From contig JAKEFJ010000028.1 in assembly GCA_022616665.1 (NCBI GenBank), positions 14,492 to 78,491 on the forward strand: DNA of 64,000 bases, written 5' to 3'. The translations under genes and the position numbers were made by a program. The notes under the pieces are model-generated. The model did no database searches. It was not told the DNA's origin and worked only from the letters and a program-made list of their open reading frames with translations. Below, in pieces: positions 7,256 through 31,222 of this stretch (position 1 is its first letter; each line of letters starts with the position of its first letter). This DNA comes from Acidobacteriota bacterium (GTDB taxonomy: Bacteria; Acidobacteriota; Polarisedimenticolia; Gp22-AA2; AA152).

Positions 7256-9841
7256 TTGATAAATATAGACAAATTCACGAACAAGGCTACGGAGGCGATC
7301 CAGTCGGGCCAGAAGATCGCCGTATCAATGAGCCACCCAAGCGTCAATCCCGAGCATTTGGTGCTTGCTCTGATCACCCAGAGTGAAGGAGTGGTCCCCT
7401 CGTTGCTCGACCAGATGGAAGCGGATCGCAGCACCCTGGAAACCGATCTTCGCTCGATATTGCAGAAGTTTCCACGCACTTCGGGGGAGAGCAGCGAGCC
7501 CAGGATTTCCCCGGCCCTCCAGCGGGTGCTGGAGTCCGCAGTCCAAGTAGCCGCACAGTTCTCCGACGACTATGTCAGCTCGGAACACCTTTTCATTGCG
7601 GTTGTACAGTCCCCCGGCGGCCTTGGCTCACTTTTTCGCGAGCACCGGATCGACCCGCAGCGACTGCTCGCCTCCCTGAAGGCGGTGCGCGGGTCCCAGC
7701 GGGTCTCAGATCCGGATCCCGAGGGAAAATATCAGGCCCTGGTGCGCTACGGGAAGGATCTCACCGCCCTCGCGAGGCAGCGCAAACTGGATCCCGTCAT
7801 CGGCCGGGACGATGAGATTCGCCGGGTGATCCAGGTGCTCTCCCGGCGAACCAAAAACAACCCTGTCCTCATCGGCGAGCCCGGAGTCGGCAAGACCGCC
7901 ATTGTGGAGGGCCTGGCGCTGCGCATCGTGAACGGGGACGTCCCTGAAACGCTCAAGAACAAGCGCCTGATAGCCCTGGATCTCGGAGCGCTCATCGCCG
8001 GGGCCAAGTACCGCGGCGAGTTCGAGGATCGTCTCAAGGCGGTACTGAAGGAGATTCATGGGTCCGATGGCTCCGTCATTCTCTTCATCGATGAGCTCCA
8101 CACCCTCGTGGGGGCCGGCGCCGCAGAAGGGGCGATCGATGCCTCCAACATGCTCAAACCGGCATTGGCGCGCGGTGAGTTGCGCTGTGTAGGGGCGACC
8201 ACCCTCGACGAATACCGCAAACATATAGAGAAGGACGCCGCCCTGGAACGCCGCTTCCAGCCGGTGCTGGTGAGGGAGCCCTCCGTCGAGGACACGATTG
8301 CCATCCTGCGGGGGCTTAAAGAGCGCTACGAGGTGCACCACGGCGTGCGGATCCGGGACTCCGCCCTGCTCGCGGCCGCCACACTCTCCCACCGGTACAT
8401 CACCGACAGGTTCTTGCCCGACAAAGCCATCGACCTCATCGATGAGGCCGCCTCTCGCCTCCGCATCGAGATTGATTCGGTGCCCACCGAAATCGATGAA
8501 ATCCAGCGGCGCATGGTGCAAATGGAGATCGAACGGGAAGCGCTGAAAAAGGAAAAGGATCCCGCCTCTCGGGAGCGCCTGGAAAAGCTTGCGGGCGAGC
8601 TGGCCCATCTCAAAGAGAAGCGGGACCGGATGCGGGCCCACTGGGAGGCGGAGAAGAAAATCATCCAGGAGATTCGCTCGCTGAAGGAGGAATCCGAGAG
8701 TACCCGCGCCGCCGCCGAAAAGGCGGAAAGGGAGGGGGATCTGGGCAAGGCGGCACAGCTGCGCTACGGGAATCTCCAGGAGCTACAGAAGAAGTTGGAG
8801 GAAGCCAATCAGAGATTCTCAAGCCTGCAGAAAGAGCAGAAGATGCTCAAGGAAGAGGTGGACGAGGAAGACGTGGCGGAAATTGTGGCCAAGTGGACCG
8901 GCATTCCGGTTTCCCGTCTCCTGCAGGGCGACGTCGAGAGGCTGCTCGGGCTGGAAGAACGGCTATCCCGCCGTGTCGTCGCCCAGCAGGAGGCTATCCT
9001 AGCGGTTTCCAATGCCGTCCGTCGTGCCCGGGCCGGCATCCAGGACCCGAACCGGCCCATCGGTTCGTTCATATTCATCGGCCCCACCGGCGTGGGCAAA
9101 ACGGAATTGGCTCGCGCTCTGGCCGAGAACCTCTTTGACGATGAGCGCGCCATGATCCGCATCGACATGTCCGAGTATTCGGAGCGCCATTCGGTGGCTC
9201 GCCTCATCGGCGCCCCCCCCGGTTACATCGGCTACGACGAGGGGGGGCAGCTCACCGAAGCCGTGCGCCGCCGTCCCTACGCGGTCATCCTCTTCGATGA
9301 GATCGAAAAGGCCCATCCCGAGGTCTTCAATGTCTTCCTTCAGCTTCTGGATGATGGGCGGTTGACCGACGGTCAAGGGCGGGTCGTGGATTTCAGGAAC
9401 AGCCTGGTCATCCTGACCTCCAACATTCCACTTCCTCCCCCGGACCGAAGCCGCGGCGACCGGGTGGATCGGACGGTTTTGACGGAGTTACAGAAGTATT
9501 TTCGGCCGGAATTCTTGAATCGAATCGATGAAATCGTCAGGTTCCGTCCCTTGACGCTCCAGGACTTGGGCCGCATTGTGGAGATTCAACTGGCCCGAGT
9601 GGAGCACTCCCTGGCGGAGCGCAAGCTCAGCCTGTCAGTGACCGAGAGAGCCAAGGAGCACTTGGCGAAATTGGGTTATGACCCGGATTTCGGAGCCCGG
9701 CCTCTGAAGCGGGCTATCCAGAGCGCGATTCTGAATCCCCTCTCCGTGGAGCTCCTGTCGGGTAGGCTCAAGGCGGGGGACCGCGTCCAGGTGGACATCG
9801 ACCCCAAAAAGGGAGAATTCACCTTCGAGAGGACAGCATGA
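7256..9841 (+). CDS. clpB: ATP-dependent chaperone ClpB (AAA+ disaggregase)
   Basis: 861 aa. Two AAA modules ([15 protein letters not shown] and [15 protein letters not shown]), a coiled-coil middle domain, and a Clp N-domain. TTG start. Confidence 0.92.
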
Positions 9842-9950
9842 GGTCCTCCCCGACGCAGCTCGGTTTGACCCCCTTCGAACAGGCCGATAAACTTCTCGGG
9901 TCCAGTGACCCTGAGCATCATCGAAGCGACGGTCCGGCGGGAGGGATCCT

Positions 9951-10397
9951 ATGAGCACGACCCGCGATTGGGTGGGTGAAAAGCAGAGAGTGCAGGTAAA
10001 GGTGGGCCAGGCTCTCCAGAAGTCGGTTGCCGGGCCCCTTTCCCCTGAAGAGCCGATTCGCCCAGGTGGTTGGTCGCCTCCGGTGGACATTTACGAGACG
10101 GACGACCGGATCGTCCTGCGAGCCGATCTCCCGGGTATCTCCATCGAGCAGATCGAGCTGAAGATAGAGAATGAACAGTTGATTCTCAAGGGCGAGCGGT
10201 CCCAGGACTCCTCGGCTCGACGGGAGGATTTCCACCGAATCGAACGCCCGTACGGGAGGTTCCGTCGCAGCTTTGCGCTTCCCCGGTCCATCCGTCAAGC
10301 GGAAATCCGGGCGGTGCTAAACCACGGTGTGCTGGAGGTGGTCCTGCCCAAGCACGCCCAGGCACGATCCAGGCCAATCAAGGTGGAGGTGCGCTGA
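9951..10397 (+). CDS. Hsp20/alpha-crystallin family small heat-shock protein
   Basis: 148 aa. ACD core (VDIYETDDRIVLRADLPGI...GVLEVVLPK). GGAGGG RBS upstream. Confidence 0.85.
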   Translation: MSTTRDWVGEKQRVQVKVGQALQKSVAGPLSPEEPIRPGGWSPPVDIYETDDRIVLRADLPGISIEQIELKIENEQLILKGERSQDSSARREDFHRIERPYGRFRRSFALPRSIRQAEIRAVLNHGVLEVVLPKHAQARSRPIKVEVR

Positions 10398-10431
10398 AAG
10401 GCGCCCTCGACGCTTCTAGGAGAGAAATCCA

Positions 10432-11283
10432 ATGATGAACCTAGTGAAAACTGCGTTCCTCCTCGGTCTTCTCACGATGCTCATCGTGGCCGTGGGAGGC
10501 TATTTTGGCGGGAGAGGAGGGGCCGCCATGGCGCTGGTTCTCGCCGCCGGCATGAACTTCTTCTCCTATTGGTTCTCGGACAAGATCGTACTGGCAGCCA
10601 GCCGAGCCAAGCCGGTGGCCCGGGAAGCGGCACCCCGGCTCTATGCAATCGTGGAAAGGCTTTGCGGGCGAACGGGAATGCCCCTCCCGCGTCTCTACGT
10701 ACTTCCGGAGGAGGCACCCAACGCGTTTGCCACCGGGAGGAACCCGCACCACGCCGCCGTGGCGGTGACTCAGGGAATCCTGACTCTCCTGGATGACGAG
10801 GAGCTGGAGGGGGTCTTGGCGCATGAGCTGAGCCACGTCAAAAACCGCGACATCCTCATCAGCTCCGTGGCTGCCACCCTGGCCGGGGCCGTCATGTTTC
10901 TGGCCAGCATGGCGAGATGGGCCGCGCTTTTCGGAGGCGTCGGAGACCGACGCGACGGTGAGCGTGGAGGAGGGGTTCTGGGCCTGTTGGTGGGCGCGCT
11001 TTTGGCACCGATTGCTGCGATGCTGATTCAGATGGCCGTGTCGCGCTCCCGTGAGTACCAGGCTGATGCCACCGGTGCTGAGATGGTGGGTCATCCACAG
11101 GGACTGGCCCGGGCTCTGGAAAAACTTGACCGATACTCCAAGCGCGTGCCCATGCTCGCCGCGGGAGGGCCTACGACCAGCCACCTGTTCATCGTGAAGC
11201 CATTCGCCGGAGCAAGCCTGATGAATCTGTTCAGTACTCATCCTCCCATTCCGGAGAGGATCCGTCGCCTCCTGGGGCGCTGA
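10432..11283 (+). CDS. htpX: Zinc metalloprotease HtpX (M48 family)
   Basis: HEXXH motif (HELSHV). Four TM segments. Typical HtpX N-terminus and C-terminal FSTHPPI motif. Confidence 0.88.
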
Positions 11284-11951
11284 TGAAGGATTCAGAGAGG
11301 AAGAACATGGAAGATCCCGGAAGCAGGGACCCGGCTTCGTCCATCCGGGTAACGGACCGACGGCATCGCTTCGGAGCAGATGCACCGGAGGCGACTGACA
11401 CGGCCGAGCCGGCTCCCCGCTACCCGAGTCTCGTGGCGGAGCTGAAAGAAAGAGCGCTCTTAGCGGAGTCGAAGCTCGCCGAGGCGCTCAATCTGCTCCG
11501 CCGCCGCGAGGCGGAGGCGGACGACTTTCGGGCCCGGCTGCGACGCGAAATGGAGCGCCGATCGCGGACGGAGATGGAGACCTGGCTGAGGGAACTGTTG
11601 GAGGTACTGGATTCCCTGGATCGGGGAATCAGCGCCGCAAGCCCAAGCGGACCCCCGGTGTTGCGGGATGGCCTTTCGAAGGTGCGCGACCAGTTTCTCG
11701 CGATTCTCTCCCGACATGGTGTTCAGCCCATGGCCCTCATTGGAACGACCTATGATCCTCATTTGGCTGAAGCCGTCGCCCTCTCCCCCACCGTCGCTCC
11801 TGAGGATGACTCGAGGGTCCTGGAGGAGCTCCGTCCGGGCTATATCCTGGGAGGTCAGGTGTTGCGGCCCGCCCAGGTGCGTGTGGCGCGCAGCTCCATC
11901 GGCACCGTCAGCGACCCGGGTTCCGGGAAAGCTCCTGCCACCGGGGCGTGA
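11283..11951 (+). CDS. grpE: Nucleotide exchange factor GrpE
   Basis: Coiled-coil N-region and GrpE C-terminal beta-domain (HLAEAVA...GYILGGQVLRPAQVRVA). The start overlaps the htpX stop (TGATG). Confidence 0.8.
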   Translation: MKDSERKNMEDPGSRDPASSIRVTDRRHRFGADAPEATDTAEPAPRYPSLVAELKERALLAESKLAEALNLLRRREAEADDFRARLRREMERRSRTEMETWLRELLEVLDSLDRGISAASPSGPPVLRDGLSKVRDQFLAILSRHGVQPMALIGTTYDPHLAEAVALSPTVAPEDDSRVLEELRPGYILGGQVLRPAQVRVARSSIGTVSDPGSGKAPATGA

Positions 11952-24983: not shown

Positions 24984-25123
24984 GCCTTCACCGCCCGATT
25001 TACACCGGGAAAGTCCCGGGCGGCAGCGCCACTTCGATGGGGGTGATGCAGATCATGGCGCCCGGGCCGAATCGCGTGAATGATTGGGATTGGCAGCCCA
25101 GACGCAGGGGAAGGAGACCATCT

Positions 25124-26497
25124 ATGCCGGTCATCATCGAGCCGTTTCGCATCAAGGTCGTGGAACCGATTGCCTTGCTGAGCCGGGAGGAGCGGGAGCG
25201 CCACCTCGCCGCCGCCGACTATAACCTGTTCGCACTTCCCGCCGAGGCGGTGACCTTCGACCTGCTCACCGATTCGGGAACCGTCGCCATGAGCGCCGCC
25301 CAGTGGGGCGCCATGATGGTCGGGGACGAGTCGTATGCCGGCTCCCGCTCCTACTATCGATTCGAGAAGGTGGTGAAGGACCTGACCGGTTATCGGCACA
25401 TCATCCCCGTGCATCAGGGACGGGCTGCCGAGAGAATCCTCTTTCATTTGACTGTTGGGGCCGGCTCCATCCTTCCCAGCAATACCCACTTCGACACCAC
25501 CCGGGCCAATATCGAATACGGGGGCGGGCAGGCCGAGGATCTGGTCGTGGAAGAGGCCGCCCAGACCGCTTCCGAATACCCCTTCAAGGGAAACATCGAC
25601 CTGCAGCGCCTGGATGATTTCTGCCGGAGAAACATCGGCAGGATTCCTTCGGGAATGCTCACGATCACCAACAACGCCGGCGGGGGCCAGCCCGCCAGCC
25701 TGGAGAACATCCGGGGATGCTCCCGGATTCTCCGCAGCCACGGCATTCCGTTCATTCTGGACGCTTGCCGCTTCGCTGAGAATGCCTATTTCATCAAGCT
25801 CCGGGAGCCAGAACACGCCTCGCGCTCCGTGGCCGATATTGCCCGGGAGATCTTCCGTCTCGCCGACGGCTGCACTTTCAGCGGGAAGAAGGATGGCTTG
25901 GTTAACATGGGGGGATTCCTCGCCTTGAACGACGATTCTCTGGCCTCGGAGGCGAGGAACCTCCTGATTCTCACCGAGGGGTTTCCCACCTATGGCGGAT
26001 GTGCCGCCCGGGATCTCGAAGCGCTGGCCGTGGGACTTCAGGAGGTGCTGGACGAAGCCTATCTGGGGTACCGCCTGGCCACGGTCCGCTATCTGGCCGA
26101 CGGACTCACCCAATGCGGAATCCCCACGGTCCGACCCCCTGGAGGCCATGCGGTCTTCATCGATGCGCGCAAATTCCTCCCTCACATCCCCGCCCGGCAG
26201 TACCCGGGGCAGTCCCTGGCTTGCGAGCTCTATCTCTCGGGCGGCATTCGCTCCTGCGAAATCGGTAGCGTCATGTTCGGACGGCAAGACGATGCCGGTC
26301 GATTCGTGGAGCCACCCCTGGATCTGGTCCGCCTGGCGCTGCCTCGACGCGCCTATACCCAGAGCCACGTGGACCGGATTATCGAGATCGGAGGCGAAGT
26401 GGCCGTCCGCAAGGATCAAATCCGAGGTCTGGATATGACCTACTCACCCCCGTTTCTGCGCCACTTCACCGCGAGATTCCGGCCAGCCAGCCGCTGA
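25124..26497 (+). CDS. Beta-eliminating lyase: tryptophanase / tyrosine phenol-lyase family (PLP-dependent)
   Basis: Near-colinear similarity to TnaA/TPL (FRIKVVEP...DSGT.AMS..QWAAMM.GDE.Y.GSRSYY...ARFAENAYFIK...PRR.YTQSH). GGAAGGAGA RBS before the ATG at 25124. Confidence 0.85.
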   Translation: MPVIIEPFRIKVVEPIALLSREERERHLAAADYNLFALPAEAVTFDLLTDSGTVAMSAAQWGAMMVGDESYAGSRSYYRFEKVVKDLTGYRHIIPVHQGRAAERILFHLTVGAGSILPSNTHFDTTRANIEYGGGQAEDLVVEEAAQTASEYPFKGNIDLQRLDDFCRRNIGRIPSGMLTITNNAGGGQPASLENIRGCSRILRSHGIPFILDACRFAENAYFIKLREPEHASRSVADIAREIFRLADGCTFSGKKDGLVNMGGFLALNDDSLASEARNLLILTEGFPTYGGCAARDLEALAVGLQEVLDEAYLGYRLATVRYLADGLTQCGIPTVRPPGGHAVFIDARKFLPHIPARQYPGQSLACELYLSGGIRSCEIGSVMFGRQDDAGRFVEPPLDLVRLALPRRAYTQSHVDRIIEIGGEVAVRKDQIRGLDMTYSPPFLRHFTARFRPASR

Positions 26498-26619
26498 TCG
26501 CCTCCTGCTCATCGGGTGCAAGGTCGCGGCGGCGGAGGTATACTGACCTGGTCGCGCCGTCCCCTCGTCGCGACGGCGCGGCCTACCGACAAGAGAGACG
26601 CTTCCTCAGGGAGGTGCCC

Positions 26620-28557
26620 ATGAACGGGCGTCATTCCAGGATCACCCGGCCCCTCATCCGCGACAACGGGTCTCTGAGGCCCGCCTCGTGGGACGAGGCG
26701 CTGGACCGGGCAGCGGAGGGATTCCGAAAGGCGGTTGATCGCTTGGGCGGGAGCGGCTTCGGGCTATTCAGCTGCTCCAAGGCCACCAACGAAGTGAACT
26801 ATCTTGCCCAGAAGTTTGCCCGGGCGGTCCTGCAGAGCAACAACATCGACAGCTGCAACCGTACGTGACACGCCCCCAGCGTCGTCGGTCTGGCGACGGT
26901 CTTCGGGGCAGGCGGTGGCACCAGTTCGTATCGTGAGGCGGAGGAGGCGGATGTCATCATCCTGTGGGGCTCCAATGCCCGGGAAACCCACCCTATCTTC
27001 TTTCACCATGTCTTGAAAGGGGTACATCGCGGAGCGCAGCTGTACGTGGTGGATCCGCGCCGCACCACGTCGGCCGCATGGGCTCACGGATGGCTGGGGC
27101 TGGACGTCGGCTCCGATATCGCCTTGGCGAATGCCATGGCGCGGGAGATTATCCAAGCGAATCTGCACCATCAGAAGTTCATCGCTTCCGCCACCACGGG
27201 GTTCGAGGAATTCCGCTCCGCTGTGGAGAGCTACACCCTGGAGGAGGGAGAGCGTCTTACCCGCGTTCCGGCATCTCTGATACGACAGCTGGCGCACGAG
27301 TATGCTCGCGCCGGAAAGGCCCAACTTTGCTGGACCCTGGGAATCACCGAACACCACAATGCGGTGGACAACGTGCTCGCTCTCATTAACCTGGCCCTCC
27401 TCACCGGCCACGTGGGGCGTTTCGGCTCTGGGGTGAATCCCTTGCGTGGTCAGAACAATGTCCAGGGAGGGGGTGACATGGGAGCCCTCCCAAACAAGCT
27501 GCCAGGATTCCAGGACGTGGAAGATGCCGCCCTGCGAGGCAAGTTCGAAAGGGCCTGGGGCGTCAGCATACCGGCGAAGAAAGGCTGGCACTTGACCGGG
27601 ATGTTCGAGGCCATGGAGCGTGGCGAGTTGTCGAGTCTCTACGTGATCGGTGAAAACCCCGCCCAGTCCGAAGCCGATGCTCGGCACGCCAACCACCTGC
27701 TGGAGAACCTCGAGCACCTGGTGGTGCAGGACCTCTTCCTGACGCGCACCGCCGAGATGGCCCACGTCGTCTTCCCTGCCGCCTCCTCCTGGAGTGAATC
27801 GGAGGGAACCGTGACCAGCAGCGAGCGCCGGGTCCAGCGCGTGAGAAAAGCGATGAACCCCCCTGGCGAGGCCAGGCAGGACCTGGAGATCCTCGTCGAG
27901 CTGGCCCGACATCTCGGGCACGACTGGGGCCGCCCCAGCGCCGAATCCACGTGGAATGAGCTGCGCTCCCTCTCTCCGATGCACGGCGGCATGGCTTACG
28001 GGAGGCTCGAGGAGATGGGAGGCATCCAGTGGCCCTGCCCCGACGAGAGCCATCCCGGGACGCAGTACCTGCATGCCCGGCTGTGGGCGGAGCCGGTGGA
28101 GGGCCCCAAAGCTCCCTTCAGTGTCGTCCGATTCGAGCCTCCGGTGGACGAGCTTACGGAGGAGTTTCCCATCCGCCTCACCACCGGGCGACGGCTCGAT
28201 TCGTTTAACACCGGCGTGCAGACCCGCGCGTTTTCTTCCCCGCTGCGCCGGGCAGAGACCCTGGATATCTCCCCAGAGGACGGCCGGCGCTACGACGTGG
28301 CGGAGGGAGAAGTGGTGCAGGTGGCATCAAGGCGGGGCCGGGTGCTCGCTCCGATCCGCTACGACGCAGGCCTTAGGCCGGGGCTCGCCTTCATGACCTT
28401 CCATTTCCCCGATCAGGTCGAGACCAATCTCCTCACCATCGAGGCGAACGATCCCAAGTCAGGCACCGCGGAATTCAAGGCTAGCGCCATCCGCATCGAC
28501 AAAGTCGCGGCGACCGCCGGCGCCATCCTGAAAGAGAAGGCATGGACATCCGCCTGA
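26620..28557 (+). CDS. Formate dehydrogenase catalytic (molybdopterin) subunit with selenocysteine encoded by in-frame TGA at 26866-26868; lacks the N-terminal Fe-S part
   Basis: Two same-frame track ORFs (26614-26868 and 27013-28557) separated only by a TGA. The context SCNRT-U-HAPSVVGLATVFG matches the FdhF Sec site (CARV-U-HGPSVAG). MopB and molybdopterin-binding domains follow. A SECIS-like hairpin lies 15-33 nt downstream of the UGA. Confidence 0.8.
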
Positions 28558-30353
28558 GTCCGGAACAACCCACTCCCGAGGAGCAGGACGCGGTCAATTC
28601 ACTCCTCGGTCCCGAAATCTCCTCCTCTGCGGAAAAATTGGGGCGCCATCGCCTGCTGCCTGCGCTCTGGGCGGTCCAGTCGCGGGTCGGCTGGGTGAGC
28701 GAAGGGGCGTTGAACTATGTCTGTCACCGGCTGGATGTTGCCCCCGCCGATGCTTACGGCGTGGCCAGCTTTTACCGGCTGCTCTCTTTGACACCCCGCC
28801 CACTCACTCTGGCTCACATCTGCGAAGATCTGGCTTGCCGGATGAAGGGGTCCGAAGACCTTTGCCAGGAGGTGGAGAAGCACCTGGGTCCATCCGCCCC
28901 CGCCCATCAGCCAGGAATGGCCCCCTGGCAGAAAAGCGCCTGTCTGGGACAGTGCGATCGTGCACCCGCCATTCTGGTGACCCGAAGCGGAAGAATCTCA
29001 CAGGATCTGATTTTGGGTGAGGCGGATTTGGCGCAGCTGCTCGCTACCCTCAGCGGGCGATCTCTCTCTCCCCCGCCGGCGGCAGCCAAGAGCATCCCGC
29101 AGCTGGGCGAGAAGGGCCTCAGACTTCTACGCCGGGTGGGACGGATCGACCCGACGAATCTCGTCGATTATCGAGCTCAGGGAGGCTACCGAGCCCTGGC
29201 GCGGGCGCTGCAGATAGGAAGCGAGGGGGTGATTCGCGAAGTGAGGGATTCGGGGCTTCTGGGGCGCGGAGGCGCTGCATTTCCCACGGCCAGGAAATGG
29301 GAGGCGGTGGCGAAGGCCCCGAGGCGCCCGCACTACCTGGTATGCAACGCCGACGAGTCGGAACCGGGCACGTTCAAGGATCGAGTCCTGCTGGAGGAGG
29401 ACCCCTTCAACCTGATCGAGGCGATGAGCATCGCCGCCTTCGCGACCGGATGCGAGCGCGGTTACGTTTACCTTCGTGGGGAATACCCCTTGGCCAAACA
29501 GCGGCTCGAAAACGCCATGGACCAGGCGCGAGCCGCCGGGTTGCTCGGAGAGCGGATCCTCTCTGCCGAGTGTTCCTTCGAGTTGGAGATCCGAAAAGGC
29601 GCCGGTGCCTATATTTGCGGCGAGGAGACGGCGCTATTCAACTCCATCGAGGGGTTTCGGGGTGAGCCTCGCAGCAAGCCCCCCTTCCCGGTTACCGCGG
29701 GGCTCTTCGGGATGCCCACCGTCATCAACAACGTGGAGACTTTTGCCAACATCCCCGACATCGTCCTGGACGGGGGCGCTGATTTCGCCTCGCGCGGGAC
29801 CAAGGATTCGACCGGAACGCGGCTCTTTTGCCTTTCCGGCAGCGTCCTGCAGCCGGGACTCTACGAAGTACCCCTGGGAACGACTCTCGGGGCTCTGCTC
29901 GAGAGGGCCGGCGGGGTTCCTGAGAATCGGTCGCTGCGCGGCATTCTCCTGGGAGGAGCCGCGGGGAGCTTTGTGGGACCGGGCGATTCGGGGCTTCCCC
30001 TTTCCTTTGAAGCCACCCGGGCTGCCGGCGCGACACTGGGCTCCGGCGCCGTCATGGTTTTCGACGACTCGGTGGATCTCAAGGACGTGCTCCTGCGCAT
30101 CGCCGCATTCTTTCGGGAAGAGTCGTGCGGGCAGTGCGTCCCTTGCCGGGTTGGAACGATCCGGCAGGAGGAGGCTCTGCAGCGGATTCTGAGTCGAGGC
30201 GCCGCTCCCGCGAGCCGGGAGGAATTGCTGGCGTTGTCGGAGATCGCCCAGGCCATGCGTGATGCTTCCATCTGCGGGCTGGGCCAGACGGCGGGAGCGG
30301 CCGTGCAGTCAGGCCTGACTCGCTTCGTGCTTCCAGCGGGAGGAGAGGAGTGA
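28542..30353 (+). CDS. NuoE-NuoF fusion (FdsG-FdsB-like): NAD(H)-binding FMN/Fe-S flavoprotein subunit of NAD-dependent formate dehydrogenase
   Basis: N-terminal thioredoxin-like 2Fe-2S NuoE region. NuoF core (GRGGAAFPT..KW, CNADESEPGTFKDR, ESCGQCVPCR). Confidence 0.85.
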   Translation: MDIRLSPEQPTPEEQDAVNSLLGPEISSSAEKLGRHRLLPALWAVQSRVGWVSEGALNYVCHRLDVAPADAYGVASFYRLLSLTPRPLTLAHICEDLACRMKGSEDLCQEVEKHLGPSAPAHQPGMAPWQKSACLGQCDRAPAILVTRSGRISQDLILGEADLAQLLATLSGRSLSPPPAAAKSIPQLGEKGLRLLRRVGRIDPTNLVDYRAQGGYRALARALQIGSEGVIREVRDSGLLGRGGAAFPTARKWEAVAKAPRRPHYLVCNADESEPGTFKDRVLLEEDPFNLIEAMSIAAFATGCERGYVYLRGEYPLAKQRLENAMDQARAAGLLGERILSAECSFELEIRKGAGAYICGEETALFNSIEGFRGEPRSKPPFPVTAGLFGMPTVINNVETFANIPDIVLDGGADFASRGTKDSTGTRLFCLSGSVLQPGLYEVPLGTTLGALLERAGGVPENRSLRGILLGGAAGSFVGPGDSGLPLSFEATRAAGATLGSGAVMVFDDSVDLKDVLLRIAAFFREESCGQCVPCRVGTIRQEEALQRILSRGAAPASREELLALSEIAQAMRDASICGLGQTAGAAVQSGLTRFVLPAGGEE

Positions 30354-31222
30354 GTTCGAGGAAGCCGGTTCAGAACGTGGAGATCACGATTGACGGCCAA
30401 CTCCGGCAGGTGCCGCAGGAAAGCACGTTGGTCCAGGCGTGTCAGGATGCCGGGATAGACGTCCCGACTCTTTGCTTCCTGCAGGGGATGACGCCGGCGA
30501 ACGCCTGCCGAATCTGCGTGGTGGAGCTGGAGGGCTCCCGGGTGCTGGTCCCCGCCTGCTCGCGACAGGTGGAGAGGGGAATGATCGTCCATACCGAAAG
30601 CGAGCGGGTGAGGCTGGCCCGGCGCCTGGTGATGGAATTCCTGGCCTCCTCGGTGGATCTTTCCCTCTCGGAGACGGCGCAGGAGTACGCGCGGCGCTAC
30701 GGGGCGCACCCCGAGCGCTTCGAGGCGGGGGTCGGGCCTCCTCCCGCCACCGTGGCGCAGAGCGTCAAGGTGGACAACGATCTGTACGTTCGCGACTTGT
30801 CGCGCTGCATCCTCTGTTACCGCTGTGTGGATGCGTGCGGGGAAGAAGCCCAGAACACGTTTGCCATCTCCGTGGCCGGGCGCGGATTCGACGCCCGCAT
30901 CGCTACCCAATTCGATCACCCCCTACCCGACTCCGCTTGTGTCTTCTGCGGTAATTGCATCGGTGTCTGCCCTACCGGCGCGCTCATGTTCAAGAGCGAG
31001 CACGACCTGCGCAAACAGGGAAGGTGGGACGAGTCCTCCCAGGCCCTGACCGAGACCATCTGCCCCTATTGCGGAGTGGGATGCGCTCTCACTCTGCACG
31101 TCCAGGACAATCGCATCGTGAAGGTCACCTCCCCCCCGGACAACTCCGTAACCCGGGGACACCTCTGCATCAAGGGTCGTTTCGGCTTTGAGTTTGTCCA
31201 GGAGTCGGAAGAGAAGTCCTGA
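30350..31222 (+). CDS. Fe-S N-terminal portion of formate dehydrogenase alpha / NuoG-like subunit (2Fe-2S + 4Fe-4S ferredoxin domains + first MopB 4Fe-4S motif)
   Basis: N-terminal plant-type 2Fe-2S ferredoxin domain, 4Fe-4S dicluster (CILCYRCVDAC, CVFCGNCIGVCP), then CPYCGVGCAL...LCIKGRFGFEF. This is the segment that precedes the catalytic domain in FdhF/FdsA. Confidence 0.8.
   Translation: MSSRKPVQNVEITIDGQLRQVPQESTLVQACQDAGIDVPTLCFLQGMTPANACRICVVELEGSRVLVPACSRQVERGMIVHTESERVRLARRLVMEFLASSVDLSLSETAQEYARRYGAHPERFEAGVGPPPATVAQSVKVDNDLYVRDLSRCILCYRCVDACGEEAQNTFAISVAGRGFDARIATQFDHPLPDSACVFCGNCIGVCPTGALMFKSEHDLRKQGRWDESSQALTETICPYCGVGCALTLHVQDNRIVKVTSPPDNSVTRGHLCIKGRFGFEFVQESEEKS

Follow-up and report, generated by a model that had tools for sequence, protein, structure and literature searches.

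A probable selenocysteine codon and SECIS hairpin in an operon for a split formate dehydrogenase from an Acidobacteriota bacterium

Introduction

FdhA, the catalytic subunit of formate dehydrogenase (FDH), is the most widespread bacterial selenoprotein and is present in 89% of the selenocysteine (Sec)-using genomes of one survey (PMC1794560). One Sec-containing enzyme already described is FDH3 of Actinomycetospora chiangmaiensis DSM 45062, which is composed of FdhA3 (640 aa, with Sec at residue 80, U80), FdhB3 (614 aa), and FdhC3 (316 aa) (PMC7176365). Formate removal by FDH3 is selenium-dependent, all three subunits are found in the proteome, and a selenocysteine insertion sequence (SECIS) is predicted downstream of the UGA (PMC7176365). 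The present analysis concerns a 64,000-nucleotide stretch of DNA from an Acidobacteriota bacterium, referred to below as the window, in which an fdhA gene on the forward strand (26620-28557) contains an in-frame UGA (26866-26868). This UGA very probably encodes an active-site Sec (U83) of the predicted enzyme, with a SECIS hairpin downstream of it.

The window operon, fdhABC, resembles FDH3 (PMC7176365) in its composition. Each system has a Sec-type subunit of about 640 aa without an N-terminal Fe-S domain, a NuoE/NuoF fusion, and, as a distinct polypeptide, an Fe-S subunit that shows homology to the N-terminal part of FdsA-type α subunits. The window subunits measure 645 aa (U83), 603 aa, and 290 aa and are encoded in one overlapping operon. 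The likeness is judged by architecture, subunit size, and Sec position as described for FdhA3 (WP_084681743.1). The host phylum differs. The nearest relatives of the window FdhA belong to Acidobacteriota, and the window carries outer-membrane genes, such as those for LptD and a TonB-dependent receptor. The enzyme type is already known (PMC7176365), and what is new here is another host.

The locus can also be compared with E. coli fdhF, which encodes FDH-H. Hairpin positions are numbered here with the U of the UGA as nucleotide 1. The two genes share the active-site context C-x-R-x-U-H-x-P-S-V-x-G-L, the distance of the hairpin from the UGA, and an apical G23 and U24 in identical numbering (PMC8659212). 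In the E. coli hairpin the loop measures 4 nt and U17 is bulged, whereas the window hairpin has a GGUCU loop, a paired U17, and a continuous stem of 6-7 base pairs (bp). The first four bases of the window loop match the E. coli loop, GGUC. FDH-H itself is of a different build: it contains its own Fe4S4 domain, serves the formate-hydrogenlyase complex, and has no NuoEF-type diaphorase. The fdhA SECIS of Moorella thermoacetica, whose RNA was co-crystallised with the winged-helix domains of SelB, has an unbulged stem and a GGUCU loop. In loop and stem style the window element presumably resembles that SECIS, a lead we note as such, while stem sequence and enzyme context differ.

The FdsABG(D) enzymes of Rhodobacter capsulatus and Cupriavidus necator and FDH1 of Methylorubrum extorquens, all of them cytoplasmic, NAD-dependent Mo/W FDHs, contain the same cofactor modules as the window enzyme. 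Compared with FdsB, the window FdhB has an additional NuoE-like N-terminal domain, as does the β subunit of FDH1. These enzymes possess one fused α subunit of about 950-990 aa; in contrast, the α subunit of the window is split and has a Sec site. The Sec of FdhA3 is not conserved in the active sites of the M. extorquens AM1 and C. necator H16 enzymes (PMC7176365 supplement).

A single reading frame spans the TGA

The fdhA gene consists of one 645-aa frame that begins with the ATG at 26620 and ends with the stop codon closing at 28557. It is predicted to encode the catalytic subunit, which binds a Mo/W-bis-pyranopterin guanine dinucleotide (bis-PGD) cofactor. A Shine-Dalgarno sequence, GGAGG (26610-26614, forward strand), can be read 5 nt ahead of the start codon, and the deposited gene call starts at the same ATG (L087 8079 corresponds to window 26620). 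When frame 1 is translated from 26380 to 28557, the TGA at 26866-26868 is the sole interruption. The open reading frames (ORFs) on either side, 26614/26620-26868 and 27013-28557, are in a common frame. This confirms the observation, made in an earlier sequence-only reading of this DNA, that an FDH gene is split at the TGA into two ORFs of the same frame.

The junction translates as ...DSCNRT-*-HAPSVVGLATVFGAGGG, or over a longer span as ...NNIDSCNRT-*-HAPSVVGLATVFGAGGGTSSY..., and gives the motif SCNRT-U-HAPS when the UGA is read as Sec. The sequence-only reading had likened the junction SCNRT-U-HAPSVVG to the active-site Sec context of FdhF. In alignments with solved FDHs, the codon of U83 falls at their active-site Sec/Cys-His pair. 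If Sec is inserted at residue 83, the expected tryptic peptide across the site would be T-U-HAPSVVGLATVFGAGGGTSSYR.

The deposited gene calls cut fdhA into an 82-aa ORF (26620-26868) and a 503-aa ORF (27046-28557), with the 59 codons at 26869-27045 left uncalled. Taken at face value, the calls describe a small peptide and a separate protein encoded by two genes. Such an arrangement, however, would lose the active-site Sec/Cys-His motif and the 59 conserved codons, which align without gaps to solved FDH structures. Moreover, full-length homologues with Cys at this site are single polypeptides of 635-660 aa. We give the two-gene account almost no credence. The read-through product aligns across 97-98% of the full-length Cys homologues and both of its halves are intact, which makes a pseudogene or a sequencing error, as considered in the sequence-only reading, unlikely.

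TGA serves as the ordinary stop codon in 32 of the 43 window genes. UGA is therefore not reassigned genome-wide, and read-through at fdhA must be site-specific. Reassignment to Trp or Gly throughout the genome is ruled out by this count. A UGA might also be read without SelB or a SECIS through near-cognate suppression that inserts Cys or Trp, and low-level suppression of UGA exists in bacteria in general. Such a reading, however, would leave the conserved hairpin described below without a role, and sel genes are linked to fdhA in some of the relatives. Decoding independent of SelB, whether by reassignment or by suppression, is very improbable.

The TGA is conserved across phyla

A genome scan, taking one genome per species, yielded the 80 closest loci (L001-L080), which show 68-73% identity; the source genome is not in the set, and the scan's best match is given as 72% identical. 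TGA is found at the homologous codon in all 80 loci. The loci span at least eight phyla, represented by Acidobacteriota, Actinomycetota, Chloroflexota, Dormibacterota, Eremiobacterota, Methylomirabilota, Armatimonadota, and metagenome-assembled genomes (MAGs) labelled Spirochaetia.

A protein search returned two populations of homologues. The first is composed of close relatives with 72-91% identity and lengths of 511-561 aa, which begin just past the TGA site. The second is composed of full-length proteins of 635-660 aa with 62-67% identity, mostly from Actinobacteria, that read SCNRT-C-HAPS, as seen in P0007, P0011, P0020, and P0042. Gene callers that halt at a conserved TGA would leave many homologues truncated just past this codon, as is seen here. 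Five more distant Cys-type genes used as controls (L082-L086) contain TGC at the Sec codon. The sequence-only reading had raised the prospect of orthologues that carry Cys and no hairpin. The close orthologues uniformly combine TGA with a conserved hairpin, and it is the five Cys-type genes examined that are without the conserved element.

These data bear on whether the TGA arose by an ordinary nonsense mutation, or by a sequencing error, in a Cys-type FDH gene. A single base change, from TGC or TGT to TGA, would suffice, and a CGA at this position in one further homologue, L081, shows that the position can vary or be misread. However, TGA recurs in 80 of 80 independent assemblies from many phyla, and the window contains a Sec-specific hairpin and a GGU codon that are not common to the five Cys-type genes examined. 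Mutation or error is effectively refuted as an explanation and is scarcely credible.

L081 (P0006), a full-length call from a farmland-soil metagenome with 72% identity, has CGA (Arg) at the Sec position (L081:413-415). It keeps a complete SECIS core (L081:425-447), which scores 36.7 bits with the covariance model described below. The CGA could be a base-call error, or Sec may have been replaced by Arg very recently, which would probably inactivate the enzyme.

A conserved hairpin follows the TGA

The core of the putative SECIS is a hairpin at 26881-26897 on the forward strand, starting 13 nt past the TGA. A 6-bp stem, formed between 26881-26886 and 26892-26897, is capped by the apical loop GGUCU (26887-26891). 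A seventh pair, C26880-G26898 (15:33), is possible in the window sequence. The element is delineated by comparative pairing, synonymous constraint, and a covariance model. Its geometry agrees with published rules for bacterial SECIS elements (PMC4605307; PMC8659212). These elements have a stem of 6-8 bp and a conserved loop G about 20 nt past the UGA (PMC4605307), and G23 and U24 sit in the apical loop (PMC8659212).

The stem, comprising nucleotides 16-21 and 27-32, is paired in 480 of 480 cells across the 80 distinct sequences of the relatives. Pair 17:31 is U-A or U-G: U17 is invariant in 81 sequences and faces A31 in 66 and G31 in 14 of the 80 relatives. Pair 20:28 takes the forms U-G, C-G, and U-A, but C-A does not occur. 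Pair 18:30 swaps from C-G to G-C in four loci (L046, L066, L073, and L074), and both changes are synonymous (GUC to GUG and GCG to GCC). With these four compensatory cells, the observed covariation score is matched by none of 500 shuffles. In the loop, composed of G22, G23, U24, C25, and U26, there is no variation at G22, G23, and C25, and U24 is kept in at least 90% of the sequences.

The sequence-only reading had placed a hairpin, CGUCG-GUCUGG-CGACG, at 26883-26898. That string is present and can pair, but its register is shifted by 3 nt relative to the conserved structure. Taken as the conserved structure, the register 26883-26887/26894-26898 (nucleotides 18-22/29-33) is paired in 87.8% of cells, compared with 100% for the stem defined above, and is broken by the C18G/G30C swap. 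It was rejected.

Synonymous sites at the hairpin are constrained. Among 246 four-fold sites of fdhA with a conserved amino acid, the mean third-position entropy is 1.40 bits. Entropy falls below 0.3 bits at just four of these sites, of which at least three belong to the hairpin codons +5 to +8. The third-position entropies of codons +5 to +8 are 0.28, 0, 0.26, and 0 bits, and that of codon +9 is 0.34 bits; the flanking codons +2, +3, +10, and +11 show 1.55-1.79 bits. The Gly codon of the hairpin is GGU in 78 of 81 Sec-type sequences, whereas four of the five Cys-type genes use GGC, one of these four encoding the identical SVVGL peptide.

A 23-nt covariance model was trained on the 80 relatives with the window left out. 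Its match in the window, at 26878-26900, scores 42.5 bits (E value of about 1e-10) and is the sole significant one in 64 kb, and the window agrees with the family consensus of the hairpin at 23 of 23 positions. The five Cys-type genes score at most 15.9 bits with this model at the homologous place, where the conserved element was not found.

A lower helix, formed between 26872-26876 and 26905-26909 on the forward strand, may extend the element around the core (26872-26909). This helix is a weaker candidate: it is present in the minimum-free-energy fold and 88.5% paired over the relatives, and pair 9:42 is open in 38 of the 80.

Decoding machinery and the state of the gene

Several results weigh against Sec recoding at this site. 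Folded as a single sequence, the region (62% GC) is no better than its shuffles, with z-scores of +0.50 and +0.32 and with 141 and 118 of 200 shuffles, respectively, being equal or better. No Rfam family matched at gathering score in the whole window, and none, including the SECIS families, matched at E values up to 10 within 26700-27100. U17 (window 26882) is paired; in the E. coli fdhF SECIS this base is bulged (PMC8659212) and contacts SelB. Finally, searches for selA, selB, selD, and tRNA-Sec gave nothing in the window and its flanks, which together amount to 81.6 kb (positions 6647-88255) of the 93,650-bp contig record CCZKAS010000209.1 (GCA_973789875.1). In this region ARAGORN identified no tRNA, and tblastn with E. 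coli SelA, SelB, and SelD probes gave no match. Pfam searches of 30 window ORFs detected no SelA, SelB, or SelD domains. The same tblastn probes did detect sel genes in six related loci.

Three of these results can be set beside other data. The hairpin signal stands far beyond chance, which the comparative data alone bring out. Bacterial SECIS elements differ greatly in sequence and are not defined by a match in Rfam. As for the decoding machinery, five related loci carry selD, tRNA-Sec(UCA), selA, and selB directly ahead of fdhA, no more than 10 kb away (L013:69-4507, L035:385-4507, L054:1182-6063, L070:249-4054, and L072:6192-9869). In these loci, which are Chloroflexota or Solirubrobacterales MAGs, the enzyme and the decoding machinery form one physical cluster. 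In L068, selD alone is found near fdhA (L068:789-1802). That fdhA can be linked to sel genes is already documented (PMC1794560). No sel genes are present within 10 kb of fdhA in 74 of the 80 loci, and their absence from the searched region here is thus uninformative.

The absence of sel genes and tRNA-Sec from the searched region might nevertheless indicate a fresh relic, that is, a gene and SECIS inherited intact by a genome that has lost the Sec machinery. UGA would then terminate translation and the enzyme would not be made. Loss of the Sec trait is known in bacteria (PMC1794560). On the other hand, the gene bears no other lesions: no stop other than the TGA interrupts its frame, and the product aligns along nearly the whole length of Cys-type homologues. 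The GC content at third codon positions is 0.82 upstream and 0.79 downstream of the TGA, and the hairpin retains every consensus position. The genes fdhB, fdhC, and fdhD are intact, and the lack of sel genes next to fdhA is shared with most relatives. A relic is unlikely, and a UGA decoded as Sec remains the reading we strongly favor.

The split formate dehydrogenase and its predicted mechanism

The fdhABC operon is predicted to encode a three-subunit cytoplasmic formate dehydrogenase of the NAD-linked type. FdhA contains the Pfam domains Molybdopterin (1.5e-66) and Molydop_binding (1.6e-22). It matches the TIGR01591 (Fdh-alpha) model at positions 51-672 with 648.2 bits, below the curated cut-off of 666.25 bits. 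Positions 1-52 of the model, corresponding to the Fe4S4 domain, are found on the C-terminus of FdhC (55.8 bits). By its domain content, FdhA is a split form of the TIGR01591 family, the Fe4S4 domain of which would be supplied in trans by FdhC. Among known structures, FdhA matches FdhF of the hydrogen-dependent CO2 reductase (HDCR; 7qv7_S, 4e-152), E. coli FDH-H (1aa6, 8e-135), and residues 306-931 of R. capsulatus FdsA. U83-H84 and the segment PLRGQNNVQG, which contains a conserved Arg, are matched in alignments to the FDH structures 7qv7_S and 7bkb_D.

The fdhB gene (28542-30353, forward strand) starts in an overlap with the fdhA stop codon and encodes a 603-aa NuoE/NuoF fusion with predicted 2Fe-2S, flavin mononucleotide (FMN)/NADH, and 4Fe-4S sites. 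Its Pfam domains are 2Fe-2S_thioredx, Complex1_51K, SLBB, and NADH_4Fe-4S, and its structural matches are C. necator FdsB (6vw7_B, 6.5e-104), R. capsulatus FdsB, and the β subunit of M. extorquens FDH1. The fdhC gene (30350-31222, forward strand) encodes a 290-aa Fe-S subunit with predicted 2Fe-2S and 4Fe-4S clusters. FdhC contains the Pfam domains Fer2_4, Fer4_Nqo3, and a C-terminal Molybdop_Fe4S4 (residues 234-284), and aligns to residues 24-303 of R. capsulatus FdsA. Judged from these alignments, the α subunit, usually a single chain of about 950 aa, is divided behind its Fe4S4 domain, and the last gene of the operon supplies the N-terminal part. The A-B-C order is kept in 64 of the 69 related loci with enough downstream sequence and also in Cys-type actinobacterial loci.

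The same contig carries fdhD, which encodes a FdhD-NarQ sulfurtransferase (L089:14250-15122). The gene lies about 2.4-3.3 kb past the 3' end of the window, which places it some 38 kb downstream of fdhABC. Its presence suggests that the genome retains the maturation machinery for formate dehydrogenase.

The mechanism is most likely the standard SelB/SECIS recoding of bacteria. The mRNA downstream of the UGA would fold into the 6-7 bp hairpin with the GGUCU apical loop (26881-26897), placing G23 and U24 about 20 nt past the UGA. SelB, carrying GTP and Sec-tRNA(Sec), would bind the apex of the hairpin through its C-terminal winged-helix domains as the ribosome reaches UGA-83. SelB would then place Sec-tRNA(Sec) at the UGA in the A site, where release factor 2 (RF2) competes, and Sec would be inserted. 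By homology with solved enzymes, Sec83 may ligate the metal of the Mo/W-bis-PGD site, which His84 and the Arg of PLRGQNNVQG would complete. Electrons from formate would enter FdhC at its C-terminal Fe4S4 cluster, follow its Fe-S chain to the FMN in FdhB, and finally reduce NAD+. The route may also run in reverse, towards CO2.

Distribution and annotation

The sequences of FdhA from L001-L080 are on average 72.4% identical within phyla and 69.7% identical between phyla, and the nearest FdhA neighbor belongs to another phylum for 12 of the 80. The 17-nt SECIS core is nearly invariant across at least eight phyla, while the FdhA proteins are about 70% identical. Taken together, the barely higher identity within phyla, the cross-phylum neighbors, and the near-invariant core hint at horizontal spread of the operon. 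It is possible, though we advance the idea tentatively and with some doubt, that fdhABC is a horizontally mobile, selenium-dependent cassette for formate oxidation in soil bacteria, with the SECIS held constant so that it can be read by the SelB of any host.

For annotation, the analysis restores a single selenoprotein gene from two called fragments. The same mis-call appears to affect many public homologues, as among the top 120 database homologues dozens lack the N-terminus and measure 511-561 aa. Provided that the enzyme is produced, this soil bacterium would depend on selenium for formate oxidation, or CO2 reduction, by a soluble complex of the NAD-linked type. The locus raises no new question: it encodes the commonest bacterial selenoprotein (PMC1794560), in an enzyme type already on record (PMC7176365).

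Neighboring genes

A gene for a β-eliminating lyase of the tryptophanase/tyrosine phenol-lyase family (25037-26497) lies on the same strand as fdhA and ends 122 nt upstream of it, with no evident functional link. A heat-shock and chaperone neighborhood at 7256-11951, unrelated to the Sec codon, encodes ClpB, Hsp20, an M48 peptidase, and GrpE. GroES and GroEL are encoded just past the 5' end of the window (L088:6085-8090).

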